A stretch of DNA of 64,000 nucleotides from Nemertoderma westbladi (Eukaryota; Animalia; Xenacoelomorpha): NCBI GenBank assembly GCA_032718475.1, contig JAUCBJ010004127.1:1-64000 (forward strand). The letters are read 5' to 3'. The notes under the pieces are model-generated. The model saw only the letters and a list, made by a program, of their open reading frames with translations. It searched no databases and was not told where the DNA came from. Positions 3,251 to 28,391 of this stretch are shown here, one piece after another (within the stretch, counting starts at the first letter, position 1; each line of letters begins with the position of its first letter). The position numbers and the translations under genes are program-made.

Positions 3251-3506
3251 ATCAGGTTTACACGCCTTCTGTTCAATACTGGCCTACAAACAAATAAAAC
3301 TGACAGAAATAGGCCTAAGTAAAATCCCAATAAAAACCAGGCGTCCCCGATTAATTATTAAGACCTACCGGCATATATAATCAAATCGAATAATACTGCT
3401 GTACTTATACGGAAGTAGGTACCGGTCCGGATGATCAGGCAGTCAGGCCTACTGGTTACCGGTCGACCGGTACTTTCGACTTTATTGCTTACTGCAATAA
3501 AGAAGC

Positions 3507-3518
3507 TATATCCTTTAA
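3507..3518 (-). promoter_or_regulatory. A1 PBS position: TTAAAGGATATA, non-tRNA, complementary to LTR-internal 4283-4294
   Basis: Directly follows the LTR end ...GCGCGAACA; no TGG; exact 12-nt inverted match. Confidence 0.75.
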
Positions 3519-4760
3519 TGTTCGCGCTTTCAGACCTTTGGCAGTTTAACCCACCAAATTAAGATGTCTTCTAGATATTAAATCTGTTTTTAGTCTATGA
3601 CAAGTATTTGATTCACTACACTAGTCGAAACCAATCCGTGCGCGACCATTCACCCGCTGGATATTCCCGGGAGATTGGGTTCGACGGTTTAATTTTATTG
3701 CTATGTAAGCCTAATGTATTATTCGACTGACAGTACTATATAATCTCTGACAATATTATTCACCTTCGGTAATATTAACAGTTCCTTTAGGACGTGGCGC
3801 TTTATCTATATAAACAGAGTTATGACTTAAACTACTCACAACGATATGGCTTAATTATAATTCACATATATGGCGCATTCTTTAGGAATTGCTTCTTTAA
3901 CAGACTCACTCATACACAATGCTGCACAATACTGCACACTAATCTGCCAATCTTCACTGATTTTAGTCACATATAAAAGGAACACAGGCTGACTCATGTA
4001 GGGTCTATCAAATAACATTAGATTCACTTCAAACCACTTCAACATAAGTCACAATCGTTATTGGTAACCTTTCTCTCTTACCTTCGGTATATCAAGAATA
4101 TTGGGTTTCGGGGTTATTTATCGTTATTCCAAATATAATAATTCATCAACCATATTATGAAGAACTGACAGTAAATAGCAGTATAAAACAACAACTGAAC
4201 ACTGATTGTTACGAGTTTGCAATGTTTCAGCAGTCAGTATGTATGATCAGTTAGCAGTAGTCGTTAGGTGCGGTCAGGTCAGTTAAAGGATATATGCCCT
4301 TTATAATTAAACCTACTAGTGTAAGACTAAAAACAGTAAAGCACAAAATACTTCCAAGCCGTTCTTTCTTAGGCTCAGGACTGAATGTAAACACTGCACA
4401 TAGGCATTGCGTCATTTCTCGGAAATTTTCTGTACAAGGAGCCACAAAAACGCTCTGATTGGCTGACTGAACTGAGAGACGCCGTAGAACAAAGGAAATC
4501 AACACGTATGAATGTCAGCTGTTAACCGTAGTCATAGTAACTACTGTTCAAGAGTAGCTATCACCCTTTTGCGTCACGAATTGCCATAGAATCATAAAAT
4601 ATGCCTTTCACAGTACACATACGGAGGAAATAGGTCTTAGATCCTCTAAAAACACCGATACAGCAATAATACGGTCTCTTACACTTATTAAATCAACTAC
4701 AGAGTATTTTAATGTAAAAGATAATAAAAATAACGGGGCAATTCAGCAAAGGCTTTTACA
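3519..4760 (-). repeat. A1 5' LTR (divergent subfamily, ~1240 bp)
   Basis: TG...CA termini (sense TGTAAAAGCC...GCGCGAACA); homologous to 31288-32475; CCAAT box at ~4455-4462. Confidence 0.85.
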
Positions 4761-5140: not shown

Positions 5141-5732
5141 TGTGACGGGATCCGAGAATCCCGATTTATCCGGTGTCTTATCTACGCATCCCCGCAGTGT
5201 GTGTGTGTGAAAAGAGTTCTGGGGTTGTTGACTGATCGGTATGTATTAACATATAGCGTATAATATAGTTGAATGAAGTATAGCACAGTTGATTGATTAA
5301 ACAGTTGATTAAATCTACCAGTAAATAACTGAATGATGGTGGTGGCAGTAGACGGAGACGGTGATAAGAGTTCCGGTACTGCCCTAACTAACTGACTTAC
5401 TGAAGTGAATGAAATGACACAATAACTGGTAATATATTGCACTAGTTGGCCATATTACATTACTCAGTGGATGCCTTCCGCCCATTGGCTAATAACTCAC
5501 TTCTCGCCCTCCCATCTCTCTGGGAGTGTTTCCCCCTGCTACTGTCACTCTCTCCCTCCCGGAGGTGTAACCTCTGACCCCCGCTGTGTGTGTGTCCCTT
5601 TGGGGTTTGGCGCCCCGTTTATTGGGGTGATACGAGGTTGATTGGCAATCAACCTCGTACTCCCAATATTGCTTAAAGCTCTTGCTTGGCCAACTTTGTG
5701 TGGGATGGTTAGCGGAATTGAATACGCTAACA
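5141..5732 (-). repeat. Family B 3' LTR (592 bp)
   Basis: About 97% identical by eye to 35107-35696. Confidence 0.95.
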
Positions 5733-5741
5733 CTCCCCCCC
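5733..5741 (-). promoter_or_regulatory. Family B polypurine tract GGGGGGGAG
   Basis: Purine run abutting the 3' LTR. Confidence 0.85.
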
Positions 5742-6729
5742 ATGCTATCTTCCCGGTGAGAAGATAGCATCCACCTTTAGTGCGCTACAATTCCGCTGGA
5801 TCCCGATCTACCATCGGGTGTGGGGTGGAGTTATTTTTCTTCGGAGCCGGCTTTCCAGGCCGCTCCCTATTGGTATGATATCGCTACCCCGTCTTGGTGC
5901 AACTTTATCTATCTTGCACCAAGACATCTGGCGTCCCGTGTCGGGCCGATCGTGCGCTTCTCTCACATAATTTTTGTTTCCCCAACACTCTCACCACTCT
6001 AACTCTGCTCTATCCCTTACTCCTACTTCTCAACCGCTCCAACTCTTACTCCTCCCCCCCACACTCGAATTGCACTCCTCTCACTGTCCCTCATCCTGTC
6101 AAAAAAACCTCCTCTCCGTTCTCGCTTTCATCCCTTACACACTTATCGGGCCCCACACATGTGCGCACATGTTACTGGGAGCCGTCTAAGTCCCGTCCTG
6201 TCGCCCTAGTCAATTAATCCCCAGTCCCAGTAGCTAATTGGAAAAGGTTATGCTTGACTACGGTACGTACTATATAATATATATATGTGAGTTACTTATA
6301 TGATTATTATAAGGCTATTATTATCATATATTATATTATATGCTCGTCTACATAACGCGCCTCATTCTCTCTCGGCCTTTCTCGCCTGGCGACTTCTTCC
6401 AGTCGTTTCTCCCCAAATCTATCCATTTCCAACTTCTCCCACGTGATATGTGTGTCCACCTCCCTGTCTACTAGATGCCGGCTGTTGTATTACGTCGACT
6501 CGCCCTCCAGCCCCGGGTGGTCTACCAGACCTTCGAAGGCCACCTAGAAGGCCCTTCTGTAGTTCGGAGGTGATCCTGATATTATTAACTTTTATTTTAA
6601 TTTTTTCTTATCTCTATTTTGTGCTATTACCCTACCTACCTTTCTGGCTACTACTTCTATGGTATATTGTGCTCTCTAGTCTCTTACTATATACTATATC
6701 TTATACATATCCTCCTATCACTAATTCTT

Positions 6730-7125
6730 GCTACTAACGGTACTCTACGTACCCTCTTACTAACTAGTTCTACAACTAACTACTACTCTTACTAACCGGT
6801 ACTACGTACCCTCTTACTAACTTCCAACTCCACTAACTCTTACTAACCGGTACTACGTACCCTCTTACTCACTTCTAACTCCACCAACTCTTACTAACCG
6901 GTACTACGTACCCTCTTACTAACTTCTAACTCCACCAACTCTTACTAACCGGTACTACGTACCCTCTTACTAACTTCTAACTCCACCAACTCTTACTAAC
7001 CGGTACTACGTACCCTCTTACTAACTAACTAACTATCTAACTAATGGTACTACGTACCTTCTTACTGCTTAACTAACTATCTAACTAATGGTATTACGTA
7101 CCCTCTTACTACTAACTAACTAACT
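6730..7125. repeat. 51-bp minisatellite in B 3' UTR
   Basis: tactaaccggtactacgtaccctcttactaacttctaactccaccaactct repeated with 51-bp period and degenerate flanking units. Confidence 0.9.
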
Positions 7126-7270
7126 TCTATCTGCCTATTTACTGCGTACCTATTATGTACTATTACTTTATATTATTTTTATTTTATTTTTTGTTTTATG
7201 TGTGGGAAGGGCGTCTCGCCCTCAATCCCACCCCCTCAGTCCAATATTTGGACGACTAAACTCTACTCGA

Positions 7271-10200
7271 CTAAGGTGCCCCCTCTAGTAGGCAGCACTT
7301 CCCTACAGCCCTCCTGTAGGTCTTCCTATCTTTCGCTCCTATCTTACCACCTATCCGCACTTCTACCGATCGGACTCTTCCATCCTCATCGGAGTAAGTG
7401 CCCACAACTCTTGCCAATCGCCATTGATTGTTGATGATGGTATCGTCCGTGACGATCACCAGATCACCCTCCTTTAACTCCCTGTTTGTATTTCTCCACT
7501 TGCTTCTCCTATGAAGCGTGGGTAGATATTCCTCGACCCACCTCCTCCAGTACTCCGCGCTTATCGCCTTAGCGACATTCCAACTCTGTCGGGAGTGTAT
7601 ATCGTCTGGGTCTACACCCCGCATGTCGATGGTCGCTGGCCTTTCCATTGGAAAGTGACTGGGCGTCAGCACATCTAATGACTCTGGATCATCATTTTCT
7701 GGATATAGCGGTCTGCTATTAATGATACCCTCACACTTTGCTAGTACCGTCCTCAGTACGTCTTCTGTTACCATGTGGGTGTTCATCAACTTCGTCATCA
7801 GACGCTTTGAACTGCCCACGAGTCTCTCGACGCATCCTAGAGTATGCGGAGCATACGGCGTCCTCCTCTCCTACTTCACCTGTCATCTTCTCATGGCTGC
7901 CCTGACTTCCTCCCCTTCCAGGATATCCAAGGCCTCTGTCATCTCGTTCTCTGCCCCCACAAAGTTGGTTCCACTGTCGGAGTATATTACTGCGATCGTC
8001 CCACCTTTGCGGTCTCTGAACCTTTCTAGGGCATTAATGACTGCCGATGCGGTTCTATCTTGGGCGAGTTCTATCCCTACCGCCCGCGTGTTGTTACATA
8101 CGAAGATAATACTGTAGCGTTTCTCCATGTGTCGCATCACCTTAATCTTTATCGGCCCGAACATGTCCACACCGCAGTGCGTGAATGGCGGGTCGTGCTG
8201 TCTCACCCTACTGGCCGGTAGTGGTGCCATCTGCTGTATGGCTCGTTCCTTCTTCATTCGTCGGCAGGTCTGGCACTGCCCCACCACCGCCTTTACCTTC
8301 TTCCTCAACTGTTTGACCCAAAAGGTCCTTCGTATCTCCGTGAGGGTCCGGTTGGTGCCCCCGTGCAATATCGACTTGTGGGAGTCCCAGATAATCTGGT
8401 GGACCATCGGCGATCCATTAGGGATGATGATGGGCTTTGGCGGAATGATAATACTGTTGTTGTTCAACACCCTAGAGTTCATTACTAAGATCCCGTCATC
8501 ATTGAGTTGTGGCGACAGCACGATCAGCTCACTGTCCCGTCGGAGATGCTGTTGTTTACCGACGCGTTCCACCTCGTCGCCGTAATTCTTTCTCTGTTTG
8601 TAGCGGATGACAGCCTTGGCCGCTCCCTCCAGATCGATGGTTGTTCTAATTTTTACGTCTTTGCCGACTCCCTTGAGGAAATCCCCGAAGGCTCTCCAGT
8701 ACGCCACTAACTTCTTGGTCTTGTACCAACTAGAGCTGTAGCTAAGGAGTTTGTCCGTCGGGTTATCGCACAGTTCTTCCGGTTTTGGTTGCACGTCCCT
8801 TATCTCCCTCACCATTTGGCTATATATCTCTTCACCCTCTGAATCTCCCTCCTCTTCTTCTAATGCTACTGTCCCTGAGCCTGGGTCCACCTTTCTCATC
8901 GGCGGCCAGGCTGTCTTATCGTTCAGAAACTGCAGCCCGTGTTGCCACAATACTTCCTTCTTCAAGAAAGTGTGGCGTGCCACGCCCCTCGATAACAAGT
9001 CCGCTGGGTTCTCGTCCGTTGGGCAGTAGTGCCACCTTTCTAACTCTGTGGTCGCCCTTATTTCGTCCATCCTATTTGCGACGAATATAGGGTATCTCGT
9101 CCTTTCGTTATGTAGCCAACCAAGCACTACCATGGAATCCGTCCAGTAGTGTGTCTCCACTATGTTGGGAATAACGTCCATTAAGTAGGTTGTGGCCCTA
9201 ACTCCTAGCCTCGCAGCTGTTAACTCGAGCTTCGGAACCGATGCTGAATCTGGTGGCGTCGACTTCGCCTTGCTGAATGCGAGTCTGGGCTTGTGAGCCC
9301 CCTCTCGTTGTACTATGTAGAGTGCCGCTCCGTATGCCTCTAATGATGCATCGGAGAACATGTGTAGATCCAGATTCGTCATGTCCCCATCCGGGAAATA
9401 CACGTGTGGCATGCTGTATGTTCCTATCTGTTCTAAACTCTCTGTCCACTTGCACCACTGCTTGCTGATCTCTCCCGGTACCTCTGTGTCCCACTCCTCC
9501 TTTAGTTTGTATACTTTCTTAAGTATCTGTTTCCCCGTGACTAACAATGGGGATGCTAGGCCTAGGGGATCGTATATCCTTGCTATGTACGACACATAGC
9601 CCCTCTTTGTGTGGATGTCTGCGCCTTCCTGGCTCAATTGGTACTTTAGTTCGTCTGTCTCTCTGTTCCACACGATCCCTAGTTCCTTCTGTTGGGACTC
9701 TATCCTCTTGTTCGCCATGTCCTGTCCCTTGGCTGTCGTGGGATTATCCATAGTCGATTCTGGCCTCCTGTCCTCTATGGCCTTGATAAATTCTCCGAAC
9801 TGGATTGGAACTTGGTTAGGTTAAAGCCGGATCCTTTAAGGATATCGCGAACCTCGCGCCCTGTGTCCAGTAGTTCCTTAACCGTGTTTCCAGACTCCAT
9901 TCCGCCATCCACATAGAAGCCGCGTCGAATCATATCGACGGCTTTGGCGCTTTATTTATCTTCCTTCCCTTCTACCGTGTCTCTTACGGCCATAGTCGTT
10001 GTAAACGAAGACGACTTGGCTCCCATATTCTGTATTACCATCTTGTACATCGGTATTGTCAACGGTTCCTCGTCGCCGTTGTACCATAAGAAGCGTTGAT
10101 TGTCGCTATCCTCTTCCGTTACACGGACTTGGTTGAACATGCCTTCGATGTCGCAGGTGAAGGCGTGCTTCCCGTTCCTGAATCTAAGTAGGACCTCGAT

Positions 10201-12518
10201 CCCTGAGTTATAGATATTGGGACCCTCCAGCAGATAATCAATTAGGCATTTGCCGTTGGTCTTCGCCGATGCGTCAACTACCATCCGCAGTTTACCTTTC
10301 TTCGTGTCTAGAGTCACATGGAGTGGCAGGTAATAGGTCCTGTCCGTGTTCAGTTCGTCGACCGGTAACTCTACGGCCCATCCTTTCTCGACATACTTCC
10401 TAATTGTCTTATGAATGTACTCATTCTTTTTGGGGCTCCGTTTTAGTGTTTGCTTCAACTTGCGAAGCTTCGTGAGTACCATTCTTTTGTTGTCGGGTAA
10501 CGGTAGCTTCTGTAGTTTCCATACCATCCCTATGGTATACCGCCCCTCGTCACATCTCATCGACTCCTTTACGCTTTGTAAAGCCTGCTTGTCTTCTACC
10601 GAGGTTCCGACCCCGGTCTCTTTCAATCCCTCAAAATCTTGCCTGAGCAGTCTCCTGAGCTGCTCCTCCGCTCTCTCATCTCCCATCTCTCGCATAGTTC
10701 CCGCGAACATGCACCCTGATGTCTCCGACATCCTAAATGGTATCCTGGTCTTAATTGGGCCGCTCAGCGTCCACCCGAATGGTATTAAAATCGCCACCGG
10801 GTCACACTGCCTGTCTTCGCCGAAGACCGTTTGGATTCTCTCGTGGGCCGTCAGGCAGTCCATTCCTACTATAATGGATACCTTCCTAACGTCCACCTCT
10901 GGGATTGAGAAGTCGGTATTGTCCAGGAATTTATACTGTTCGACCTCGATGTTGGTTGGTCGCCTGGCATTGATATTTATCGACTCTATCACCTGGGTGG
11001 GGTCGATGGTCGCCCCATAGTCGCATCCTGGTGCTATCGCTGCTATCGCGCACCGTCCGGTCCTCATCTCCAGGACCTTATCTTTGCTGGAGATGGTTGT
11101 TACCGCTATTCTACTTGGCCTCGTTCTCAATCCTATCTCTTCGGCCACCCAATTCTCGACTAATGTGAAGGCTGCTCCACTGTCGACCAGCATCAGTGTG
11201 GTTACTGATCGATTGCCTTCCCCGATTATCCTTACTGGTACTACCCTGAGTAGTACCGTTCCTCTTTTCTTCGCCCCTACGGTGCTTGTCGCCATCGTCT
11301 GCCCTTTACTTTGACCGAATTTAATTGGCGTTTCTTCGCATTGGTCGGCTCTATGTCCACCCGTCACACACCGAGAACAAACTTCGTTTCTCCTCGCGTA
11401 TTCTACCTGATCTTCCCTGGGTAGCGCTTGCCAGTACCTGCAGTTCATGGTCTGATGAAGTGCATTTGTATGCAATTGGCATTTGCTCTTTGGGTTGTAG
11501 ACGTCCTTATACAGTGCGCTGCATATCGCACTTACATTTGTACCAAAGTCCCTACTATTCTTATTGTTTGGGTTCGGCCTACTGGGCATGTTGGGGTTTT
11601 GTTTATTTGTGTTGTTATTTTTTCCTGCCCGCTCCTTGATGTGGTCTTACCCCCGGCTACTTGTGGACTAGCAGTCCCCTGCGTCGCCGCGTACGGCAGT
11701 GACTGTCTGAGCTTTGGCAATGCGTTCGACGTGTTGTGTTCTGGTTTCGGCCTGTGGTAATCGGTCTTTGGTCCCTTTCCCAGGCTATCCTCGCTATAGA
11801 CTGGGTCCGTTATTAGTTCAGCTTCATAGTTTAAGAAGCTCGACATTTCTTCTAAACCCGGTTCCGCACCCTTCCTGTCTCGAGTGGAGAAAGCAATCTT
11901 CCTCCACTTGTTGCGCAGCCACATCGGTAGTGCCTGCGCTATCGTGGTGATGTTAATAGACGCGTTGAGTTCGTATGGTGCGTCCAGCATCTTTAACACG
12001 ATTAGCGCTTTCTCGACTTTGTTCGCAAATGTCTTTATGCTAACGGGGTTATCCTGTAGGCCACCCGATGTTATACCTCTCAGGGTTTGCCGGATGATCT
12101 TGGCTGGGAGCCCGTATTCCCTGTCTAGCGCCAGCCAAGCTGCCGTGAAGCCGCCCTCGATGCCCTGATACTGCCTCACGATGTCGTATGCTGGGCCTCC
12201 TGTATACACTTGCAGATATTTTAGGCACTCCGCCTGCGTCAGGTTCTTCATCAATATTTCATTGCTGTACATGCGCCGAAACTGCAGGTATTCTTCCGGC
12301 CTACTTCCATCGAATTTAAATGGCTCTACAGGTGGCAGTTCGATCCTGGTCTTTAAGGCATTGATTAATGTAGCCATTCCCATCGCCTGTGCCTCCAATG
12401 GGTTCGATGGATGCTGTACAGATTCTGCCGTTGGGTGCGGTCCGTTCGTCCTATCTGCTGCCCTTCTCTGTGTTGGGTATGTCATAGGGGGTAGCGGCCC
12501 CCTCCATATCTCGGTGTC
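7271..12518 (-). pseudogene. Family B gag(capsid)-PR-RT-RNaseH-IN, multiply frameshifted
   Basis: PFKFDG capsid-like motif, CSRCVTGGH knuckle, LVDSGA protease, DIEGMFNQV and degenerate YVDG (RT), HMFSDAS, HHCC plus GVDMFGP and SDSGTNF (integrase), DGRVRSVEV C-terminus. Confidence 0.93.
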
Positions 12519-13705
12519 TGTTCGCGCTTTCAGACCTTTAGCAGTTTAACCTGCCAAATTTAGATGTCTTCTAGATTATAAATCGACTTTAGCCTATGAC
12601 GAGTATTTGATACACTACATTAGCCGAAGCCAGTCTATGCGCGACCATTCACCCGCTGGATATACCCGGGAGACTGGATTCGGAAGCTTTGACCTTATTG
12701 CGGTGTAGGCCCACTGTATTATTCGACTGATTGTTAATATATAATTTCTGACAAATATTATTCACTTTCGGGAAATATCAACAGTTCCTTTAGGACGTGG
12801 CGCTCTAAATATGTAAACAGAGTTATGACTTACACTAGACACAATGGGATGGCTATTGATTCACGTATAAAACGCATTCTTTAGGAGATGCTTTGTTATC
12901 AGTCACAATCATGCACACTACCGCACAATGCTGCACACCGATCTGCCGACCTTCACTAATTTTAGTCACATATAAAGAGAACAGCAACCGACACATGTAG
13001 TGCCTATGAAATAGCATTAGATTCACTCCAAAACCAATATAATGTAAGTCGCAATTGCTATATGTAACCTGTCTCTTACCTTCAGTATATCAAGAAGATT
13101 GGGGGTTTTATGATTATTTATCAATATTATCCAAATATAATAATATTCCATCAACTGATATAATTAATAACCGACAGTAAATAGCAGTAAAAATGTGGTG
13201 TTTGTAGGTGACAATATGATTTGTGTTGAGTTGGTATGGTTTGATTTGTGGTTTGATAACAGTTATACGTTTCTATGACCAAAGCCTACTAATGTTTGGC
13301 TAAAGCCTGAAACACAGAAATTCCAAAGCCGGTCTTCTGGCTGTGGACAAAATACACATACTGACTCAATTGCATGATTTTCTGTATACAATCTCCAACA
13401 CAGAGTCAAAAAACGCTCTGATTGGTCGACCGAACAAAGAACGAACAAAGAACAAAGAAAAAGCTACACGTGTACATATCAGCTGTTAGATGTCGTCATG
13501 GTAACTACACTGTATCAAGAGGATTTTGGCTTATTGCGACATAAGATCGCTAGTTATGTCCGCTAAAGTACACATACAGAAGAAATGGCTTTTTTTGTCC
13601 ACTAAAACACCGGTACAGTAAGGAAACGGCTTTTTATGTCCGTTAAAACACCTACAGAGTACTTTGCGGGGAAAATAACTAGCTAGATCCGCAAAAGCCT
13701 TTACA
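12519..13705 (-). repeat. A2 3' LTR
   Basis: About 99% identical to 31288-32475; preceded by PPT-like GGGAGCGG at 13706-13713. Confidence 0.95.
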
Positions 13706-13783
13706 CCGCTCCCAGAAAATGGCATTTAATTCTATAAAATATAAAAAATCACAGTTTCTAAAATATAAAAATACTCTAAACAG

Positions 13784-14230
13784 TTAGTTTTTCTTGCGCG
13801 GACGGCGTTTACGCGGTTTTTTTTTGAGGCTAGCAAGAGTCCTTTTCTCTTTGGGGCGAGCCACTTTACTAGGAGGGTTATAACCCTTGGGTGAAGGGTG
13901 CAATACAATTGCATCAGAAGGTTTAGGGTTACGGTCGGTGTATCCGCCCGTCGAGGTACCCGGTTGATCGGTATCAACCTCAGTGGAATGAGGTCGAACA
14001 ACCTTGAGAGCGCGTTTTGAGACAGCAGCTCTTACTGGTCCCTGATGGGTCGTCTGAACGATAGCGGTAGGTGGACCGTGTATAGTGAGAAATTTCCTCG
14101 GTTTGATGATTCTTTCCAACTCGCGTTCTCGGGCTCTATCGGAATCGATATGCTTCTCCTCGAGCTGATTTTCCTCCGCTTGTCGTTGAAAACATTTGTA
14201 CAAACTCTTGCAGAAAGTAGAGCCGTCCAA
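13784..14230 (-). CDS. Family A 3' accessory ORF3 (basic C-terminus), unknown function; start uncertain
   Basis: Homologous frames in A3 (56539-56811) and A5 (63663-63878) all end in K/R-rich LKK(P/L)RKR..RKK. Confidence 0.35.
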   Translation of the reverse strand: MDGSTFCKSLYKCFQRQAEENQLEEKHIDSDRARERELERIIKPRKFLTIHGPPTAIVQTTHQGPVRAAVSKRALKVVRPHSTEVDTDQPGTSTGGYTDRNPKPSDAIVLHPSPKGYNPPSKVARPKEKRTLASLKKKPRKRRPRKKN

Positions 14231-14424
14231 GTTCGATATCTTCTTAGAGATTCTGGATTTCCTGATCGAACTGAGATAAAGCTAATTCGTTTACCGCTTG
14301 GACTTGTTGCTGAAATTTACGTTTCTCTAAACAATTGTAGGTTCCTTTTCCGATCTTTTGAAGAATAGTGTCCAACACGTTTCGTACAACTCTCTCCTCC
14401 GCCTCAGTGACAGGTTGTATCGGG

Positions 14425-14724
14425 TTAAACCGGGATGATGATACGGTTGAATGGTGATATTAGATGTCCGCGTCCCAATCCGGCTAGGTAAGATGGGCGA
14501 ATATTTAGGGAGCCCACAACCGGAGTGCCCCCGACTAACTGTTCGGGTAACACTAGATCTTTGAACAGTGAGTACAGTTCGGGAGGATCCGTGATACTAT
14601 TAGGTTCAAGAGTCTGAGGTCTAACTAGGGAATGAGGAGGTCTGACCGAGTATTCCGGAACTCTGATCATAGGTTCATTCAAGGACCGCTTGAATCGAAT
14701 GAGCGTAGGTGATACATCGAACAA
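14425..14724 (-). CDS. Family A 3' accessory ORF2, unknown function; start uncertain
   Basis: Homologous to 55769-56173 with the same stop position. Confidence 0.4.
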   Translation of the reverse strand: MFDVSPTLIRFKRSLNEPMIRVPEYSVRPPHSLVRPQTLEPNSITDPPELYSLFKDLVLPEQLVGGTPVVGSLNIRPSYLAGLGRGHLISPFNRIIIPV

Positions 14725-14890
14725 GTTTCGCTCGAAACTCCCGTAAATATAGCGAGTAAAACCGTGTTTAGCTTAACGTCTCCGCGGATGTTTATGTCTT
14801 TCCGTTTGTTGGTTGGGTCTTGGGCATTCATCGCAATAATACCAAAGACGCACGTCTTGTAGGGGAAACGCGGGTGATATTTATTCGGTT

Positions 14891-15337
14891 TTACAATGTT
14901 TCTCTCAAGAATTCCAAATATACGTTGGAGTTACCGCGTTTATCCGGTTCTTTAACGTCTTCTCTTTCGATTCGATTTCGAATAGAATTTTCGCATTCGA
15001 TTTTCAGTTTATCGTTCCGACTCCGCTGGGTAGGATATTTAAATAGTACCATTTCCCTTTCGGTGTCGACATCGTCCGTATCGTGTAAATCGATAGGATA
15101 ACCAGTAGTTAAGAAGCCCATATGCGTACCATTACGATGCGTATAGCGAGCAGTGAATTTTCGATAGTCCAATTCACGCGTAAGTTGCTCCTGGGACATC
15201 GGCGGTTCGATATAACGACCATCGTCCTCCGTAGTAGTTGGACTAGCGTCGCTGCGTATCAAGCTATCAACAAACGCTTGCAACGGTAGAGTATATTTCT
15301 CCCTGATACCAAGATCATCTTCTATCAACTCAGTCAT
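14891..15337 (-). CDS. Family A 3' accessory ORF1 (148 aa), unknown function
   Basis: ATG-initiated; same length and ~87% identical to 55263-55709. Confidence 0.55.
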   Translation of the reverse strand: MTELIEDDLGIREKYTLPLQAFVDSLIRSDASPTTTEDDGRYIEPPMSQEQLTRELDYRKFTARYTHRNGTHMGFLTTGYPIDLHDTDDVDTEREMVLFKYPTQRSRNDKLKIECENSIRNRIEREDVKEPDKRGNSNVYLEFLRETL

Positions 15338-16974
15338 AGCTGCTATATGAGTTTATCAATATTATAATGAGTTTATAATTAGGCTAGCGGGCGTCGCTGC
15401 CTACCCCTCTCGGCCCCCGGACAGCGCAAGATCCTCAGCGCTGGTGTACTTTCGCCGATGTGCCTATCGCCAACGTAGTAGCTGCACAACGACCACAACA
15501 ACCAGCGCGAGTCACTCCACCGTCCGTCCCAAAGGCTTAGATTTACTTCAGGTTCTTACTGGAGAGTTAGGGCTACTTTCACAATTGCGACTCGCTACTG
15601 TAAACACACTTTAGTAGTAACATTCACCTATAAACGCACAAATTCCACACAACTGTCACAAACCGCACACATTCGGGCCATTTGTACATTAGTCAAGTGC
15701 CTTCCAGAATGTCACGTTATTATCGGGTATCTTTGGATACTAGCAGTGTGCTATTTTATTCCTTATGCTATTCAATGGGGCAAGCCTTTATTGTTCTTTT
15801 AACTCACTTCTAATTCTAGCGTGGTTGTTGCCATGGTGACATTATGGAAAGCTAGCAGTAGAATTAGGGTAATTCTCATGCATACAGATCTGGGATGCTA
15901 TTTAATAGTAATTCTTTAATTGTCAATATTCCTCTTTATACATGATTTTATGAATTTTATCGGCTATTGACTATATATTGGAGATTCTCGCACACTAATA
16001 TACTTAATAGGGTGAATCTCCGCTCCCATGATCTATTAATTAATGGAATTTTGGGAATGTTATAAATTGTATAAAATTGACAATTTATCAAATTCATTAC
16101 AAAGATGAATTTAAATTTATTCCCGTAAATTTTATTATTTAATATTAAAATAGACACCATTTTATTCCAGAACATATCTGGGGACTGGGATCCTTGATTC
16201 TAGGAAATTTGTCCTTTTAAGAGTATCGGTAAGTGCTACGATATCTTAATTGACTAGAATTTTAAAGGATCTAAATTTTGACAGATTTTATAAATATTAA
16301 TAGTTAATATTTAAGATGGGCACCGGTTTATTCCAGAACTTGTCTGGGGACGTTAACCACTGATTCTAGAATTTTGTCTTTCAAGTATATCGGTGGGTGC
16401 TGCGATATCTTAATCGACTAGAATTACAGATGGTCAAAGGGTTTAACAGATTTATTTTGCGTTTTACGCTACTGTTAAAGGGACATCACGCTACTATATG
16501 TATTATTTAATATACGGTATGAGAGCAATATCGCAAGAAGCAATGTCAGTGAGAAGAGGCAAGTCGTTTCCAAGGTCTACCCAGAGCTTGGTTTAGCCGA
16601 GACACGAGGATCTGAACTTTGCATTCCTAATACTCTACTTACCAATAATACTTGAATATAGTAGGAGCTTTATTGTACTTTAATAAGTATGGATATTTCA
16701 TCTTACTGTAGTTACGTATTTGTAATGTAATACGGACAGTAAGGAAAGAGAAAAAGAATTATTTCTCGCCGTCGCTCTAAATATATAATATATAAGTAAT
16801 TAAGTAATAAACACTAATATATATTGCACTAATTTACTAAATAATCGCTAAAATAACATTCTACTAAATAAAATTAAAGAAAACGATTATAATAAAATTA
16901 CACAATAATACATACATAAATATAAAATAATAAGAATATAAAATAATATAGTCACACACCCACTCCAGACGTTG

Positions 16975-19900
16975 TTAAGTTGGGGAGTCCCTAGATGTTT
17001 GTTGGATTAGGGAGGTGGTCGTGGGAAGAGTATCTTGCCTTCCATAGTTTCCGGAGAGTTCTCTGTCTCTTTCTAGTAAACATAAACGACCAACTGGGCG
17101 ATTGAGCTGCTGTGTCTCGAAGACAATTCCCGGTTTCTTAAAGTTACGTCGCATGACAACGAGTTCTACCGATCGCACCAAACCATCATCCGAGATGTGA
17201 GTCTCGATGATACGACCTGTCTGCCACCGCTTACGTGGAAGATCTGAATCCACAATAAGGACCATGTCTCCAGCGCTGACGTTTTCTTGCTGCACAAACC
17301 ACTTAGTTCGAAGTTGTAGCGTGGGCAGATAATGTTTTTCGAAATGGTCAGCGAAACGACGGGATAACAACTGCATAAGTTGCCAAGTTTGCCGGCAGTA
17401 TTCGTCTCCGTCTGTGATTTCCGATCGTGGGAGCATGGCTACAGGTTTCTTCAGTAGGAAGTGCGCGGGTGTTAGCGCTTCCAGGGAATCGGGACTCGAT
17501 GAGACTGGCATAAGCGGTCTCTCGTTGAGATAGGCGGCGATTTCCTCCATTAACGTCCGCAAAAGTTCGTCGGTGAGATACGCGCGGCACGGCACTATGA
17601 AGTGAAATGCGGTCTTCACGCTCCTGATTAATCTCTCCCAACTTCCTCCCCACCAAGGGGCGTCGGCGGCGTTGAAGGTCCAGCTAGACGCTGTTAACCT
17701 TAGCTGATCGTCCACCTGTCTTTGGTTCCAATCTTTGACGTAAGCTTTGATTTCATTGTTGGCACCAATGAAGTTCGTTCCCTTATCAGATCTCATCGTG
17801 TTACTAGTTCCAAAGCGAGCGATCTGTCGCCGTAAGCTCAATAGGAAGCTGTTGGTAGATAAATCGTTCACCATATCGAGATGGATAGCTCTACAAGTCA
17901 TACAAACAAAGATGACACACCATCTCTTGACTATAGTCCTAGCACGGTATACTTCAATAGGGCCAAATATATCTACACCGGTATTAGTAAAGGGTGGTTC
18001 ATAGAAGCTTACTCGTTCCCTAGGTAATTCTGCCTCTCGCTGTGTTAAAGGCCTACTGAATGCTTTCCTACAGGGTATGCAGTTCCTAAGAACTTGGTTC
18101 AGAGCTCTACGGGGTTTATAAAAATAATAGCGAATTCGAATTTCGCTAAGAACTCGTTCTCTACCAGCATGATAAAGTTTGCTGTGAACATCTACAATCA
18201 TCTTGATTTGTATTTCAAGATTTCTAATGAGTATGGGAAACTTGGTGTCAAAGGATAATGGAGCATTAGTTAATCTTCCTCCAACACGTATCAACCCATC
18301 TATCATTGTGCTAGAGAAACGATCCCTTAAGCGCATCTGTGGATTTCTCAACAACAGGAAATACTCATCGGAATCCTCACAGCATTGCAGGAGTCTCAGC
18401 ATCTGCTTGTTGGTTTCTTCATGCTCCTGATAACTGATCTTCTCCTTCAGAAACCTGTCGCATATCTTATATTTGGGAAGATCTTTAACAACATGGACCT
18501 GCACAGATGTCAGTGGAGCGGTATCACTATTGGTCTTCGCCCTGGAGTAGTGATGATGAAAACATCGCTTTAAATATGTAACGGCCTTACAGAGCCGATT
18601 CCAGGAACTGTAGTGATATATCGCTATCTGCAGGAGAGGTGAGAGTCCTTGCGAGACGTCTGGTATTCCAGATTTCCAATCCCTCTCTCTGATTTCCACA
18701 ACAGACTTATTTGCGGCTGTGGGTTTCGGATCCAAAGCGTCGTCTCCGGAAGTGTGTAGTACAGACAGATCTACCACGGGTTTAAATAACTTCGATTTAC
18801 TCGCCCGAGTTTTAGGTTTGACTTTCTCCACTCCCTTGGCCTGTCTAATCTCTGCCGTAGTAAGATGAGGAGGCCATTCATCCTCTTCTTTGCTTAGGAA
18901 GTCGGGTCCACCTAACCAGTCTGGAGTATCTATCAGTTCTTGTGGAGTTGCTCCCCTGGAGGCGATGTCTGCTGGATTAATCGTTCCGGGGCAATGTCTC
19001 CATTGATCCATCTTCGTGCGACTAAGTATAATGGCTACTCTGTTGGTAACGAAGACGCTGAACTGACAGACTTCATTGGTTATATACTCCAACACGAGTA
19101 AAGCATCGGTCCAATAGACAGTTTTCTCCAGTGGATAGTCGATCTGTTCTGTTACATTCCGGCCGATGGCTGTAGCATATAAAGCCGCTTTTAACTCCGC
19201 TCGAGGAACTTTCAACTTGTTGTTTATCAATGCCTTAGAGGTAACCAAGGCGACTTTGATTCCATCCGGAGTTTCCACTCTCAGGTAGGCTACTATACCT
19301 ATTCCCATATCGCTGGCGTCTCCAAACACATGGAGTTGATAGGAATACGTAGGGAGAACATGACCAAAATATGAACGGGAAATTATAAAGTTCTCGATGG
19401 CTGGTAGAGAATCTTCCCATTTCATCCACTTCTTTAATAATTCTCCCTTAAGTGGATCGTCCCATGAGTGGTTTTCAAGCCACATTTGTTGTACTAAACT
19501 CCGAGCAATCAATATAACTGGGCTAATAAATCCCAATGGATCGAAATAAGTGCTCAGGATACTTAAACAAATCCGTTTAGTCCGAACTGGATTATCTCGC
19601 TGTTTTAGCTGGAAAAACAGGATATCTCTCTCTGTGTCCCATTTCAAACCAAGTGTCTTGGTTTCTGGAAGATCATCTTTGATTAGGTCTAGGTCTTTCG
19701 CTCCTCGATCTTCTACCAGGATCGATTCTAGAAACTCACGGGAGTTGCTGGTGAATTTAGTTAATCGAAATCCACCTCTTTTTAAGCACTCTACCGTTCC
19801 TTTGGCGACATCAATGGCTTCTTCCACAGATGGAAGGGACTTTAAATTGTCATCCATGTATATATCCCGTTTGATGTTGTCGATCACCTCTTTTGAGAAG

Positions 19901-22900
19901 GCGTCCCGGTTGTCATCAGCAGTGGTGCGCACCACTGAGCAGGCGTTTGAAGGGCTTGAGATGATCCCAAAAGCCTGGATGGTCATCCAATACTCCACCG
20001 GTTTCTGGTTGAGGTCTCCTTCAGGCCACCACAGAAATCGTAGGCTGTCTCGATCCCTATCCAGCGCCTTGACTTGTAAGAACATGCCTTCTATATCGTA
20101 GGCGAAAGCGATTGAATATTCCCGATTGTATTCCCAACAAGGATTGGAGTAAGTTGGGTCCTGGTAACAACTCGAAATTAAGGGATTGGCCCATGTAGAG
20201 GGCGGAGCCATCAAATACTACTCGTACCTCATGGGGTTTACCGGGTTTGGGAACGTAATGATGTGTTAAATAGTACATTCTCTCAGTTAGGGGTGTTCCT
20301 TCCGGTACTCGCTCCGCATATCCCTTGTTAATAAATTTCTTCAACTGAGTCTGATACATTTCTTTAGCTGAAGCATTTGCCGTAAGGCGTCGATGTAGTT
20401 GAGCAATTCTTTTCTCCGCCAAGGGTCGGTTGTTTATGAATTTTGGTTCTCGCTTTCGGAATGGGAGACCGATTTCATATCTACCTTGATCTTTAAGAAA
20501 ACGTGTAGTTGTCTCCTGGATCTGCTTGGCTCTTTCTTCTTCTACCGATAGGGCCTTATCGTAGGAATTGGGCTCTACAGCCTCTTGAGTAAAGAATCGT
20601 ACGGCGTGTTCATCTCGAGTTTTCGCGTTATATCTCTCGATTACGTCATTCAGTTTGTCGTTATAGTCGACTTGTCCTGATGGACGAATGACTTGACATA
20701 GGTTCACTTGGTTTTGCCAAGTCTCGTTTTCCGTAAGGATATCGATGGTATTCTCCTCGTCGAAGAGCTGGTGGATATCGTCATTATCTGAGGAGTATGG
20801 TGTTCCCTCAGTTGGGTCATCAACTTCACTGCTCTCCACTTCCCATTCACTTAATTGATATACCTGTTCTTTTGGTACGCTTATGTCCTTCTGGGCTCCT
20901 CCCCGAGGCGCACCCATGAGGCGGATGCTTTTCCACCACCCTTGGGGCCAGTCCGACTGATGTTTTTATCAGACCGGGCCGGAGGGTAGCCCGATGCTTC
21001 CCGGGTTCAATTTTCAATCCCCCGATCACACCGGCACAGCTCGTCAGTGTAGCCAGATGGTCGGCTACTGTCAACTTACTGTGGCCTGACTGTACATTGA
21101 GCCAACTCAGAGAGTCAACCGGCGGGTGGACCAGTCGATAGCGATCGAGCATCAAGGTCGCCCTTGAGCCAAACCGACGGTCTTGTCCCAACGCTACCCA
21201 ACATGGAATATTGACACGTTTTCACCCGCCTCGCAGGCAGTATTGAGGGGAAGTCAGTTCCGCAAACAATACTGACTAGCTCGAAAGCTAGGAACAAGTA
21301 AACACTTACCAGTCACTGTACACGTGTACTCAACAGATGTTCACAATATCAAGTACACTACGGTAAACACAAAATCTGACACATACCATGCACACACAGA
21401 GGACATAATCGGGAAAGACAAAATCGGGGACAAAATCAGAGGGGACAAAATTGTATCGACTGTTAAAAGAGTCGAGAGTACCTTATTTTGCCGTCAGGGC
21501 AAAATATTTTTGTGTGCACAAAGTATGCTGGGGCGCAGTAAAGATATGGTCCTACTAATACCAGCGGCGTCTAGACCAACCGGCAAGGGTTCCCATACTC
21601 ACTCGCAGTGGCCATACATACACTCACGTATACCACGTACCCACAGCAACAGAAAGCTCAAGCAAACTGCCACTGATCGTCCACACGCAAACCACAGATT
21701 CCAGAGTATCATTCACTCGGACCACACTACGACACCAACCCCTCCTTGCAGCCGATATTCCGGGTGCTACCTCCATTCCAATAGTAGTACCAACAGAATC
21801 ATCAGAAACCTGCCCATTCCGATGCAACACCTCCATTCCAATAGTGCTACCCTGGGAAAAGACACGTTTTGGCAACCGATCGGAGACAGTAAAGAGTCTG
21901 GTCAACTCATACATACCAAACATAGACCTACCACATAGACCACAGATCACACTAAGCCACCACCCCTACTGTGTACAGGACTGGCAGTACGGCAACAGGC
22001 CGACTAGACGGTACCACGGCACCATGTTAATTCATGGTTCGCAAGACACGAGGGCCTTCAGTATCTCCCTTGCACTATACATGGGATTTAACGTGCCCCC
22101 AGACCCTCACGAGTCCGCCGCCGCCTGTTAAATACCCCCTATAGAGACCTCACCTCTTTAGGATCTTTCCATGAGAGTTCTACGGGAAGGGCCAGTAAAG
22201 TACCAACCTACTCTAGTTCTTCCCGCATAGACTTGTAATGGTTGCGGTTGAGCAGGCCGTTTCTCCAATGTCTCAAGCGCTTCATGCGCATTTTGGCCGA
22301 TGAGTATTTGCACTCCAGGGTAATCTGTGTTGAATCTAGGTATATAAGCTGCTGGGTGGAATCGTCCTCATCCCAGTTATAAGGTTCTACTTGGCTGGTA
22401 GCGAAGTTCTTTATCGCCACCATTTTTACTGACCTTATACTGTGTTCTCCTAGTTCATCCTGGGGGGTGGACAACGCACCTACATAATAATCTGCTATTA
22501 CTGTAGATTTCTAAACCTGCATAATTCCTGACATGTTTAACTTAGTTCGGAACTTGGGTTGTCCAGCAAAGATGTCTTCGGCTAGTTCTTTGTCGATGAA
22601 TGTTCCTGTGCTACCGGAGTCAAGGAGGGCGTTCACTATATAACTCCTTTTAGGTCCGTGGACCCTCAACTGTACTACGGGAAATTCTCGGATTCCTACA
22701 TTGGAAGTTGGTGCTTTCCAAGATGGTTGTCGGTCAGAAGTAGTTAGGGGGAGCTCGCTATCGGTATCCTTTTCATACGTAAGTGCTCGATACACTGCGG
22801 TATTTATCAGGTAACAGGATTCGTTTTCGTCGGAGAATTCGTCCGTATAGAATCCTTCCATCTCAGAACTTTGGTCAGTGTCGTTCACATCACTGAATTG

Positions 22901-25900
22901 GACATGTAGTTCGGAATCACTTACCTGACTCGGGCTGTTTCTTTCGAATTCAGTGTGCAACAAGAGATGATGTTTTGCGCCGCACTTCGCACACCTTGCG
23001 TCGGAGTAACAGGTTCGCCGTTGGTGTCCTTGTCTGAGGCAATTATAACACAACCGCTTATCCCACATGACTTCCCGTCTATCCTTTAATGATTTCTTTA
23101 GGAATTCATCACACACATTCAAACGGTGGGTCCCGTCACACAGCGCACATTTCGGTTTGATATTACTTACCTTATTTTGAGTAACGTTGTGCACACTCGT
23201 TCTTTCTTCGGGCTTTCTTACCTGAATTCTCTTAGGAGACGTAGGAGGAGTTTTTCTTACCTGTTCTCTCCTGTCATTGGTTTGAGACTTGAATTTACTT
23301 ACGTCTTTAGGCGTTTTATTGACATAATAAGATCTTTCAGTGTCTTTCCCGCTGTCTTCTTCTTGAGAAGCCTGGCTTTCGCCGTCGTCGGTATAACACA
23401 CTGGTGTTACCTTTCTCCTAGAAACGGGTTTCTCACTTACCTTGTTTTCCGGTGTCTTCTCTCTGGACTGCTTTAGGAGCTGTAATTTCACTTCTCCATC
23501 TAAGAATGACATGAGATCAGCCATGGTAGGGTCTCGTCGTTGTTGTTCCATCATATATAACACTTTCTTATCCCAGCGTGTGCCTACTCCACCCTTAGGT
23601 AAAGTAGAGGCCACGGCTCCAATAACCATAGAACTCTGATATTCATGAGACTTACCTAGCCAATCTAATTGTCTACAGATCTCCTGAATCTCATCGGAAA
23701 ACTCTATAATCCCGCTGCTAATGAATTTTCGGGGCGCTACCAATTTTGCATACAAATACCTAGCTATGTTATTCCTATTACCATACCTGATGTTTAGGGT
23801 ATCCCAAACTTGTCTTAATCCATCTGGATGTCCAATAAACTTTAACGCCATTAACTTGGGAGATCCTTCCAAGCACTCGATGAGGAATCTAAGTTTCTCT
23901 CCGTTAGATAGCACAGAGTTCTGTATGTTATCTTTGTAATATTCATTAAAAGGTAACCATTTCATCTCATCTCCATTGAACTTGACGATCTCTCCCACCT
24001 TTACCGCTTGACGGGCTTCGGTTCTAGCCATTTGACGCGTAAAACTTTCTTGGGCCATCGTATTATTTAATATCGAGTTATCGGTATATAAATTTCTCGG
24101 ATTATGATCAGGTCTATATGGAATATCATTGTCAACAGGTTTATAATTACCCTTAATAGGGTTTACTATAGGAGTTTCCACTTCACTAGCAGTATAGATG
24201 CGTGTAGGCTCCACACCTTGCGCATGAAATACTTCAGACCTAACAGGTTGACACATTGTTACAGGGGGTGGTGGTATACCCTTTTGGATATTTACTAATT
24301 TATCGCGTTCTAACGCGATACTTTGCTGCACTTCTTGCAACTCTAACCTACCCTCTCTAATTGTTCCCTTTAACTGCTGCACAGTCTCCCCCATCTCCTG
24401 GACCTGCTGAGAGGAGCAAGAACGGTGTTCCCTCAGCTGCCCGAGCAGGAGACCCATCTCCCGTCGTCCCTCATCTACCCACTCGACCGCCGAAGCGGGA
24501 GGCGCCAACGTTGTAGCGGGCGGACGAGGGACAACGGGCGACAAATCATTAATATTTCGCTCGGAGTCCAGGACATGAACATTTTCAGGGGTGGTTCTGT
24601 GGGGCACAGGTAGCTTAGTGCTGTGCAGAGGGAATTTAGAGGTAGGTTCAGGGAGTACAGGTGTCTCTATCACCGAAGGGGTGGCTTCGAGAACAGGCCT
24701 AATTATTTCAGGCTCATCTACTATAGTAGGGAGTCTTTCTATTTTAATTATTTGGTCTGTGGGTTCTGTACTACCTAAGTCTGTGTTAGTTAGTTGCCTT
24801 CTAACAGCTGGGGGCAAATCAGGCAATTTCTGACGGTGGGACATTCTTCTACGTCTGCTTAGACGAGATCTATTTCCTCCGCCTTCAGGATCGGTGGTAT
24901 CGCCTTCATCAGATGATGTATATCCCTGTCTTTTGGGAGTAGATCGACTCATCATCTGCATTTGACTAGCTGTTAACTGTTTATTTATGCAGTCTTGATT
25001 CTCTTGAATATTTTCCAACTCTAGTTGGGTGGTCTCTTCAGATGCTCTTCGTTCTGCTTCTGCCACTGCCTCTGCGCTTTTCTTTCCGCTTCTGCCGCTG
25101 CCGCTTTTCTTTCCGCTTCTACTGCTCGCTGCCGCTTTTGCCTCTGCCACTGCCGCTTTTATTGCTGCAGCTGCCGCTTTTCTTTCCGCTTCGTCCTGCT
25201 GCCAGCTGCCGCTTTTGCCTCTGCCGCTGCTCTGCCGCCTTTCTTTCCGCTTCTGCCCTGCCATTGCCGCTGCTGCTGTCTTTCTGTCCTCTATACGTTT
25301 TTTCTTGACTTGTTCTTCTTGGACCCTAGCGATGCGGAGGCTTTCATCAAATTTAGCTTGGTTCGCAGCTATCATATCCGCATCGATTGCGTCCAACACA
25401 AGCTTGGCTCCTTCACTATTAGGGCGAAGTCCAGACAGCCGTCTCCTCAACTCTTCGTCACCTACAAATCGTTGATAGTCTGACAGATAGATGTCAATAG
25501 CATCCCTCTTATGCGGTTTCTCTGCTGTCACTTCACTTTCCACTTGGGAAAAGGTAGCGTCTGTTGATTCTCCATGGGTTGAGCGCTCAGCCAGCTGAGA
25601 TTTCCACTGGGCAGTTCCTTGAACTTGGAGACTCACCCGCTGAAACCAAGTCTTTACGGCAACTTGCAACGACGTGTCTTGTCTTCTTTTCGAAGCCTCC
25701 TCAAAGGCCGATAAGATTAGTCTGATTCGTAGAATTCTTTCTCTAACTTGATAAAGCAGCTCTCCCTGCTCTTGAGGTCCTTGGGGTTGTCGAAACAGTT
25801 GTTCCTCTAATCGCTCCATAGAGCTGAAGAATCCCTGTACGTATCCTGCTGCTGACCTCTTCCACACAGCTGGATCGCTGGTTTCTTTTGTCACTCCCAT

Positions 25901-26455
25901 CCTGTGTATGTCTTCCCAGGCAGCTTCCGATAAGTCAAACGGGAGTCCGGGTCCGGGGAAGTTCCATTGCGACTCGACAATAGACTTCAGTTCTTCCCTT
26001 GTGTATCCCGCATAACTATCCTTGGTCGATCGCTTACTTCTCGCCCAATCAATCTGGTGTTCCTCCACCGCAATCAATACCCTAGTGAGTACGGCTGCAG
26101 GAAGGATGAGAAGGGGATCCGAATAAACCGCATCTGCCATCTTTGCTCCGCGCTCGGGTGTCAGCTCTACAGTATCCGCACTACTGGAGCTGTCGGGCCG
26201 CTGAGAAATAAGTTCTCGGCTCGAGTGTTGCTGCTGTTCCGCTGCTTCTTGGTCCCGCTTGACCTGAGCTCGAGTGCCTATGATAGACCTACGGTGTTGG
26301 ACTAGCCTAGGGTCTGATATTACTACTGGAGGGATGATCTTTCTTACAGTAGGAGGTGAGTTGAACTTCGGTCTCACACGTTCCACACTCCTGTCTGGGT
26401 CACAGATGGTTGTATCTAGGAGACTGTCTGACAGGTTTTGCTTTGTGTCAGACAT
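16975..26455 (-). pseudogene. A2 gag-pol polyprotein (originally ~2700 aa), with stop at 22511, frameshifts and a 1.3-kb insert
   Basis: Three BEL Cys-His boxes (CALCDGTH, CYNCLRQGH, CAKCGAKHHLLLH), ALLDSGS, YMDD, HVFGDAS, HHCC, GVDIFGP, SDKGTNF, GGSWERLI; the TAG at 22511 is TGG in A3. Confidence 0.95.
20879..22163. mobile_element. Unclassified ~1285-bp GC-rich insertion in A2 pol
   Basis: Absent from A3, where ...LER-LPKDQV... is contiguous (~49735); no TSD or TIR seen. Confidence 0.7.
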
Positions 26456-28391
26456 GTTTGTTTGTACAGTTGAATGCCTACTGCTATATTACAGTTAAAG
26501 CAAGTCTAGTAATTCAGTATCAACTGTTAGCCTAGTAATTAATTACCGATACTGTTACTCAGTGTAACGTGATATATATATATAATATATTAGAATACCG
26601 GTATACACTTATAGTATATATATAAGTATTATTACAGACTAGGTTTGTCACAGAATACCGGTATATAATTTCAGCGCAAATATATATAAATATATAATAG
26701 GCCTATCGTGAATACCGGTATACAGCTTACACTTATAGTATATATAAGTATAATTATGGACTAGAATTAATTACAGAATACCGGTTATAATTTCAGCCTA
26801 AATTTATAGAAATAAATATAATAAGCCTATTGTAAATACCGGTATGTCAATTATTTTAGAATAATTGAATTTCTGAATTTTAGGGGTTACTTGGTTACTT
26901 TACTTTACTTTATTACCGTTATTTAAGCAGTAGTCCAACTGATATTAAGACCTAATTGTTGTATGACAGGCCTACTATTTTATAAATCGGTTTGAGTTGA
27001 TTTATAATATATATACCCCTATAATGGGTTTTGTCAATATTTGAAATAAATGTTATTATTTCTGGGAAGGAGTCACTGCACAGAAGCTGTACGCTCTCAG
27101 TGAAGTGCTACTTGTTGGACACTAAAACAAATAATTCTAATTTACCTAAGTTACTTAATACTACAAATTACGTACAATTCGGGGTGAGATTACAATCTCT
27201 AAATAAACACAAAAATTACACGTACGAATTTTTAGGGTAATTTTACAAGAAGTCTACAAACCAGCCTAACAAAGGGTTAGAATATCTGGTTATTACAAAC
27301 AGACAGGATACTACGGTATTTGAAAATAACAAAGCAGTAGTAAATATACTGCGTTGTCCAGATAGGAAAAATACCACCGTCTGACGACTTATAGCCGTAT
27401 CGCTATAAGTACTACGTTATGTATCACGGAGTGTTCCTACCTAGAAGTTAATTACCGCGGTCTACCAGAACCAACGTGCCTATTAACCACTTTACAACAC
27501 AAATATACTGCCTACACACTAATTACCTTCGGAAAGCACTGTACACTAAACCCTAAATTAGGTACAAGTACTTATACAACAAATAATCAGCAGTTAGAAA
27601 TACTTGTACAGCTAAAAGAACCACGGTATCTGCTGGAGTGACCGGGGCACAAAATCACCAGTCTTTACCTACGCCAAGCAGCCCTGATGTAGTACCGGGG
27701 TTAATTTAACTATAACGGTATGTATAACAAGCACAATTACTGTAGGAATAAACTTGGGGATATGAATGTTGCGAATAATCGCATAAACTCTGAATAATAA
27801 ATATTACGCTACGCGTACAGACTACTCAAACAAAATACAGACCAAACGCTGGCAGACTACTATCAAGCCTAAACAAACTACAGTATATGCAGACTCCGAA
27901 ATGGTTAGTTAGTATGCGTTCTAACCGAGTAGTACGACTTATTCTTTCAGGGGGATTTACCTCACAGCACTGGAAGCCCCTACGTTCCTAACTAGTACTT
28001 TATCGGACATACACTCTACACACACCGCAATCTCTTCAGACCTAACAACAGCCAGACAACAATCCAGCCTACAAATTATCTAAATAAGAAATATTACGCT
28101 ACCCGTACAGACTACACAAACAAAATACAGACCAAACGCTGGCAGACTACTATCAAGCCTAAATAAACCACAGTATATGCAGACTCCGAAATGGTTAGTT
28201 AGTATGCGTTCTAACCGAGTAGCACGACTTATTCTTTCGAGGGGATTTACCTCACAGCACTGGAAGCCCCTACATTCCTAACTAGTACTTTATCGGACAT
28301 ACACTCTACACACACTGCAATCTCTTCAGACTTAACAACAGTCAGACAACAGTCCAGCTTACAAATTATCTGTACAATCTGGGCAGGCTTA

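Follow-up and report, generated by a model that had tools for sequence, protein, structure and literature searches.

Nested LTR retrotransposons with Pao-type proteins

The window, that is, the whole stretch of 64,000 nt analysed from the Nemertoderma westbladi contig JAUCBJ010004127.1, is a nest of LTR retrotransposons, in which three 5' LTR-PBS junctions are readable, those of A1, A2 and B (Table 1). The internal region of A1 extends past the left window edge, and no polypurine tract was found upstream of the A1 LTR. A2 is inserted in the gag of B; its LTRs show 13 differences in 1188 positions, and this pair together with the 5-bp duplication GACAC fixes the LTR end. The B LTRs show 20 differences in 592, and the duplication CCTTC fixes the ends of B. 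The pol of A2 is interrupted by frameshifts, its leader of ∼4.8 kb contains tandem repeats (28969-29490 and 29963-30219), and the ∼3.3 kb after pol include two short ORFs (13784-14281 and 14891-15352) without a Pfam match. Elsewhere in the window, A3 belongs to a nest at 43630-59624, has a 55-bp satellite inside it (53459-55033) and an A-type gag fragment after its 3' LTR, and at 38191-39240 on the minus strand the translation points to part of a non-LTR (LINE-type) reverse transcriptase.

Table 1. Positions of the elements, LTRs, PBS positions and predicted primer sites in the window.
Feature	Position	Strand	Remarks
A1 5' LTR	3519..4760	-	1242 bp, TG...CA; followed by leader and gag ORF 20-1387
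A1 PBS position	3507..3518	-	12 nt TTAAAGGATATA, without TGG
A1 predicted self-primer	4283..4294	-	exact complement of PBS +1..+12; 764 nt from LTR end
A1 second-helix arm in LTR	4297..4304	-	pairs with 3504-3497
A1 second-helix arm in leader	3497..3504	-	PBS +15..+22; also in local 9-bp hairpin
A2 element	12519..32475	-	19,957 bp with both LTRs; lies inside family B; target duplication GACAC
A2 5' LTR	31288..32475	-	1188 bp
A2 3' LTR	12519..13705	-	identical primer site at 13266-13256
A2 pol ORF	16975..20217	-	C-terminal part of reverse transcriptase, RNase H (D, E, D motifs), integrase
A2 PBS position	31277..31287	-	11 nt ATAACAGTTAT, near-palindromic
A2 predicted self-primer	32026..32036	-	exact complement of PBS +1..+11; 738 nt from LTR end
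Second A2 PBS copy	31208..31218	-	within 69-nt tandem duplication, unit 31292-31224
Family B element	5141..35696	-	both LTRs, target duplication CCTTC, ∼10.6 kb minus A2 insertion
B 5' LTR	35107..35696	-	590 bp
B 5' LTR motifs (motif match)		-	CCAAT (LTR position 245), TATA-like (297), initiator-like (330, 338)
B 3' LTR	5141..5732	-	identical primer site at 5369-5361
B PBS position	35098..35106	-	9 nt, without TGG
B predicted self-primer, 3' part	35325..35333	-	exact complement of PBS +1..+9
B second helix	35348-35340 with 35092-35083	-	imperfect
A3 3' LTR	56890..58082	+	homologous site 57313-57323, a third variant; 5' LTR and PBS outside the window
A4 3' LTR	62446..63584	-	end truncated; site 63165-63155 same as that of A2

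The ORFs of A2 and B matched the Pfam families Peptidase_A17, DUF1759, DUF5641 and Integrase_H2C2, and both elements showed a Pao-type gag and pol with the motif order PR-RT-RH-IN. Among the matches listed, PF05380 was present in all of at least 120 homologues, and the named homologues came from corals, echinoderms, molluscs, fish and insects at 28-41% identity. Both elements have TG...CA LTRs, 5-bp target duplications and a purine-rich run ahead of the 3' LTR, and the D, E, D motifs of RNase H are directly readable in both. Given these Pao-type domain matches, the elements are of BEL/Pao type; membership of the Tf1/sushi group was considered and rejected, as the proteins are Pao-type and not those of a Ty3/gypsy chromovirus. 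In a quick tree of 108 rows, which included no named reference elements, the A2 and B rows stood on long branches with unsure placement. The named clades of BEL/Pao are Sinbad, Suzu, Sparrow, Surcouf, Tas, Dan and Flow. Some BEL/Pao clade names are given in PMC6238403.

The ICTV profile of the Belpaoviridae describes elements of 4.2-10 kb whose replication is primed by a tRNA, with an 18-nt PBS that pairs with the 3' end of a host tRNA-Arg or tRNA-Gly, and calls the replication of the family poorly understood (PMC8742986). The window elements resemble this description in their LTRs, their gag and pol with the order PR-RT-RH-IN, their Pao-type Pfam families and their polypurine tract, but differ from it in the absence of a tRNA-type PBS and in the length of A2, which at ∼20 kb is twice the given range. 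Since the ICTV description includes a tRNA-type PBS, the label BEL/Pao-type rests here on the proteins and departs from the description at the primer site.

PBS positions and their complements within the LTRs

Pairing with the CCA end of a tRNA needs TGG at the PBS. TGG was absent within 58 nt of the 5' LTR end at all three junctions and first occurred at +180 in A1, +59 in A2 and +109 in B, so pairing with a tRNA CCA end is impossible there. The nucleotides directly after each 5' LTR are exactly complementary to a site inside the same LTR, and in A1, A2 and B the orientation fits a primer, with the 3' end of the LTR site pairing with the base that adjoins the LTR end. Both LTRs of A2 and both of B carry this site. 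An earlier sequence-only reading had reported the PBS without TGG and the exact LTR-internal complement for A1 and A2, and all its coordinates hold; family B, which has the same layout, had escaped it. The imperfect pairing to about 22 nt that it described in A1 corresponds to a second helix of 8 bp at +15..+22, including 2 G-U pairs, beyond a 2x2 loop. It had also placed the LTR site at a homologous position ∼740-760 nt from the LTR end in both copies, and the A1 and A2 sites indeed align, at the distances given in Table 1.

The same reading had called for shuffled controls. We used dinucleotide shuffles of the LTR (5000 per element) and exact complements anchored at +1. The observed match length was reached in none of 5000 shuffles for A1 (12 nt), 10 of 5000 for A2 (11 nt) and 28 of 5000 for B (9 nt). 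When LTRs and PBSs were swapped among the three elements, the matches did not exceed 6 nt (5-6 nt for the swaps between A1 and A2). Without anchoring, the 25-nt duplex was unusual in A1 (-20.3 kcal/mol, 3 of 200 shuffles) and in B (-26.7 kcal/mol, 0 of 200; 12 of 200 at 14 nt) and ordinary in A2 (15 of 200 at 14 nt, 40 of 200 at 25 nt). Unanchored energy therefore separates A1 and B, not A2 or most relatives, and the anchored match is the informative test. A published rule asks for a complement of at least 10 nt that starts 0-5 nt after the 5' LTR (PMC6317226, in part); A1 and A2 lie within it, and the 9 nt of B fall below it. The near-palindromic PBS of A2 makes its LTR site a 10/11 direct repeat as well; the PBSs of A1 and B are not palindromic.

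Comparison of A1 with A2 revealed co-variation of the PBS with the LTR site. The two PBSs, which the sequence-only reading had called entirely different, have 7 of 11 bases in common, so that this description was too strong; the co-variation that it claimed is borne out, as the differing positions (1, 5, 6 and 8) are Watson-Crick compensated in four of four cases. Identity between the PBSs was 7/12, compared with 106/120 in the flanks (53/60 in U5 and 53/60 in the leader; Fisher p 0.015), and identity between the LTR sites was 8/12, similar to that of their own flanks (35/61 and 35/67). The divergence of the PBS thus follows the LTR site and not its own flanks, which in these two copies fits the behaviour expected if a self-primer is copied. 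A tRNA primer would restore one constant PBS in each cycle, whereas with a self-primer, plus-strand synthesis would run into the attached primer and copy it, so that LTR changes would end up in the PBS. Such rewriting of the PBS from the LTR site would explain the perfect co-variation. Tf1 cDNA keeps a copy of the PBS at its 3' end (PMC11042837, in part).

Two other explanations bear on these observations. First, the matches might have arisen by chance, or inverted duplication might have left them behind in repeats that are AT-rich and decaying. The PBS of A2 is AT-rich as well as near-palindromic, its duplex energy is ordinary, and a 69-nt rearrangement is located exactly at it; against this, all three 5' LTRs in the window are anchored at +1, the position is homologous in A1 and A2 with four of four compensations, and the pattern recurs in the held-out relatives described below, which makes this explanation highly improbable in our view. 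Second, the pairing could be an RNA structure serving packaging, dimerisation or translation control, the primer being a piece from within a host tRNA or another small RNA; this seems very unlikely to us. Half-tRNA primers without TGG are known from some Ty1/copia lineages, namely Osser, Bryco and Bianca, in which the PBS complements an internal part of a host tRNA (excerpt of PMC6317226). Competing local hairpins in the leaders of A1 and A2 also favour this possibility, and no tRNA genes were found in the 64-kb window. A tRNA would, however, keep the PBS constant, yet the PBS varies more than anything around it; the PBSs of the relatives also differ, the best match of each being to its own LTR, and a long-range helix covering the PBS would keep a tRNA out.

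Contiguous and spliced matches in distant relatives

Alignment of the A2 pol with 40 homologues led to 93 loci from public contigs, and both LTR ends were available in nine of them. Two of these, L078 and L006, have TGG at or near the PBS start and matched their own LTR over 4 nt only. In the seven relatives without TGG, the contiguous match from +1 was weak (4-8 nt), and only that of L036 was unusual (6/1000 shuffles). Under a splice rule that requires a GTRAG donor, a pyrimidine-rich YAG acceptor and an offset of 0-3 nt, six of the seven (L021, L036, L014, L015, L081 and L086) showed matches of 10-12 nt across a GT-AG junction, each reached in 0-2/1000 shuffles, values that are post hoc since the rule was designed after results on these loci had been seen. 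The seventh, L080, reached 8 nt only (53/1000 shuffles), or 10/11 with one mismatch. In a wider search, 2 of 132 mismatched LTR-PBS pairs reached 9 nt and none exceeded it. L081 and L086 differ at three bases, all of which are compensated across the junction.

The same splice rule was applied to held-out loci. A first scan comprised 12 loci with known start, the LTR end being left free, and gave eight rows at ≤3/100 shuffles, among which L017 repeats L015 and L067 repeats L065. L013, L018, L028, L053 and L065 showed 10-11 nt (0-3/100), and the best match of L074, 12 nt, lay away from the true LTR end. A second scan covered 38 loci, five of them repeated from the first and three unusable, and 8 of 35 were at ≤3/60 shuffles: spliced matches of 11-13 nt were found in L056, L062 and L084 (0-2/60), L074 had a spliced match of 11 nt at the LTR end that its LTR pair points to, and L008 had a contiguous one of 11 nt (1/60). 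The matches of L012 and L083 were judged spurious, and L027 is a repeat of L021. No match at a credible LTR end was found in L004, L012, L046 and L093, and most negative loci of the second scan span only part of the LTR. In A1, A2 and B a splice-joined primer was rejected, the best joined matches being 8, 6 and 4 nt, lengths reached in 46, 186 and 192 of 200 shuffles, respectively.

We incline slightly to the view that self-priming may be normal in a large share of non-insect BEL/Pao elements and that in most of them the spliceosome would join two LTR exons into the primer, families A and B being intron-free with a PBS that would be rewritten in every cycle. In the quick tree, the spliced elements were scattered over both main groups and the window families were of unsure place, so that origins are not countable from it.

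Several minor features of the relatives and of the LTRs were also recorded. In L021, L036, L014, L028, L053, L065, L062 and L074, the pairing starts 0-3 nt past the LTR, and most predicted primers of the relatives end in AC, opposite GT. Families A and B and L015 have zero spacer on both the PBS and the polypurine sides. The family A LTRs contain an intron-like stretch of 75-76 nt on the minus strand (4081-4005 in A1, 31848-31773 in A2) with a GTAAG donor, an ATAG acceptor and, in A1 and the A2 3' LTR, a branch-like CTAAT. Situated ∼180-200 nt downstream of the primer site, it leaves the primer unsplit and resembles in length the 71-77 nt introns of L015, L036 and L014. In addition, 23 contigs filed under bacterial genomes (L071-L093) carry BEL/Pao elements and are probably host DNA; L078, with its TGG-type PBS, is a Wolbachia record and falls among insect elements in the tree.

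A candidate self-priming mechanism and its place among known systems

A1, A2 and B likely start their minus-strand DNA from an LTR-derived fragment of their own RNA. This proposal, which the sequence-only reading made for family A in the form of a tRNA-independent primer encoded in the LTR, explains best, in our view, the lack of TGG, the anchored complements, the compensated differences, family B and the contrast between the relatives and the TGG controls. According to the model, the 3' end of the LTR site would pair in vivo with the first base after the LTR, the site folding onto the PBS with the aid of a second, imperfect helix and closing a loop of 218 nt (B) to 764 nt (A1). By analogy with Tf1, the RNase H domain would cleave at the paired stretch's 3' end, leaving a free 3' OH, from which the reverse transcriptase would copy U5 and R as far as the cut. 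The primer of many distant relatives would be complete only after removal of a GT-AG intron from the LTR, and in the window families it is contiguous.

The motif matches around the site were compared with this model. Family A has a conserved CCAAT 169-179 nt upstream of the site and an initiator-like motif ∼35 nt upstream, and no TATA box is common to its LTRs. In A1, TATAAA stands 6 nt upstream of the site (4305-4300), and it is missing in A2, A3 and A4; if this were a TATA box, the site would precede the transcription start. The motifs of B suggest that its primer would extend some 25-35 nt in the 5' direction. In L014 the site starts ∼30 nt past a TATA box, a Tf1-like geometry, and in L021, L081 and L074 it lies 90-190 nt further on.

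TATAAA is also a possible variant poly(A) signal. This matters for a related explanation, that the element's own RNA does supply the primer, but from its 3' LTR copy: the genomic RNA, or a partner RNA, would fold back with its 3' end onto the PBS. The site does occur in both LTRs, AATAAA directly follows it in L081 and L086, and the TATAAA of A1, ∼16 nt before the 3' end of the site, could act as such a signal. We nevertheless regard a 3' LTR origin as very unlikely: the A2 LTR has neither AATAAA nor ATTAAA, B has neither close to the site, the hexamer of A1 is unconserved, and a TATA-like box stands upstream of the site in B, L014, L021, L080, L081 and L074.

Self-priming with a primer from the 5' LTR would have counterparts in other superfamilies. 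Tf1 is self-priming, an LTR-derived RNA primer taking the place of the tRNA 3' end, and priming of this type reportedly needs a U5-IR-like stem-loop. Folds of the LTR end and leader gave differing local structures in A1, A2 and B. In Tf1, the RNA's initial 11 bases anneal to the PBS, with RNase H cutting after base 11 (PMC7175516, in part). Self-priming Ty3/gypsy elements include Tf1/Tf2 of Schizosaccharomyces pombe, Tj1 of S. japonicus, the Tf1/sushi group and, by prediction, Tcn1 (parts of PMC7175516, PMC4600332, PMC5341516 and PMC6317226). Like Tf1/sushi and Tcn1, the window elements have no tRNA PBS, have ∼11 nt right after the 5' LTR that complement an LTR site, and possess RNase H; unlike Tf1/sushi, they have BEL/Pao proteins and a loop of 218-764 nt, and they are known from sequence alone. 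Their primer would probably not be the very first bases of the RNA as in Tf1, and in many BEL/Pao relatives, again unlike Tf1, it is split by an intron-like stretch. The PBS of A2 starts with ATAAC, as does that of Tf1 (excerpt of PMC11042837), probably by coincidence because A1 and B differ.

For the Houba, Osr-1 and TAR lineage of Ty1/copia, self-priming was likewise predicted from sequence alone, under the rule that includes A1 and A2 (PMC6317226, in part); these are, however, plant elements with another domain order, and B has 9 nt plus a second helix. One further source treats self-priming only as a hypothetical ancestral state and describes hairpin priming for chromoviruses (PMC3601003, in part). 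The open literature yielded no report of self-priming in BEL/Pao; subscription journals, Repbase Reports, GyDB and supplements were outside the scope of this search, so an earlier remark is possible. Neither 'PBS' nor 'tRNA' occurs in the main text of the BEL/Pao surveys PMC3118150, PMC554778 and PMC6238403.

Self-priming is already known in Ty3/gypsy and Ty1/copia. The BEL/Pao case, a departure from the ICTV description, would if true make BEL/Pao the third superfamily with this mode, which would then occur in all three superfamilies of LTR retrotransposons. Primers built by splicing, if real, would make replication depend on splicing and establish a new link between splicing and reverse transcription. 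A self-primer would free the elements from the host tRNA supply and plausibly from tRNA-fragment defences, and such elements could go unnoticed in pipelines for which a tRNA PBS is obligatory. The model makes exact predictions for the RNA start, the cut position and the molecule attached to the first cDNA.

Finally, the 69-nt duplication of A2 (31292-31224, minus strand) ends in an imperfect inverted copy of the LTR end and PBS (∼15/18 letters). This inverted arm could sequester either PBS, and the duplication may be the trace of a primer-cDNA junction. Contigs from DNA runs include forms with and without it, seen as joints that skip or go back 69 nt. In 40 of 320 variant rows from contigs of four DNA runs (31050-32600), no variant fell inside the A2 PBS or LTR site; these contigs are short (90-473 nt for the listed ones), so that a PBS is not linkable in them to the LTR site 740 nt away. 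One contig of run X3 showed a family A LTR end followed by a PBS variant starting with GT, not AT.
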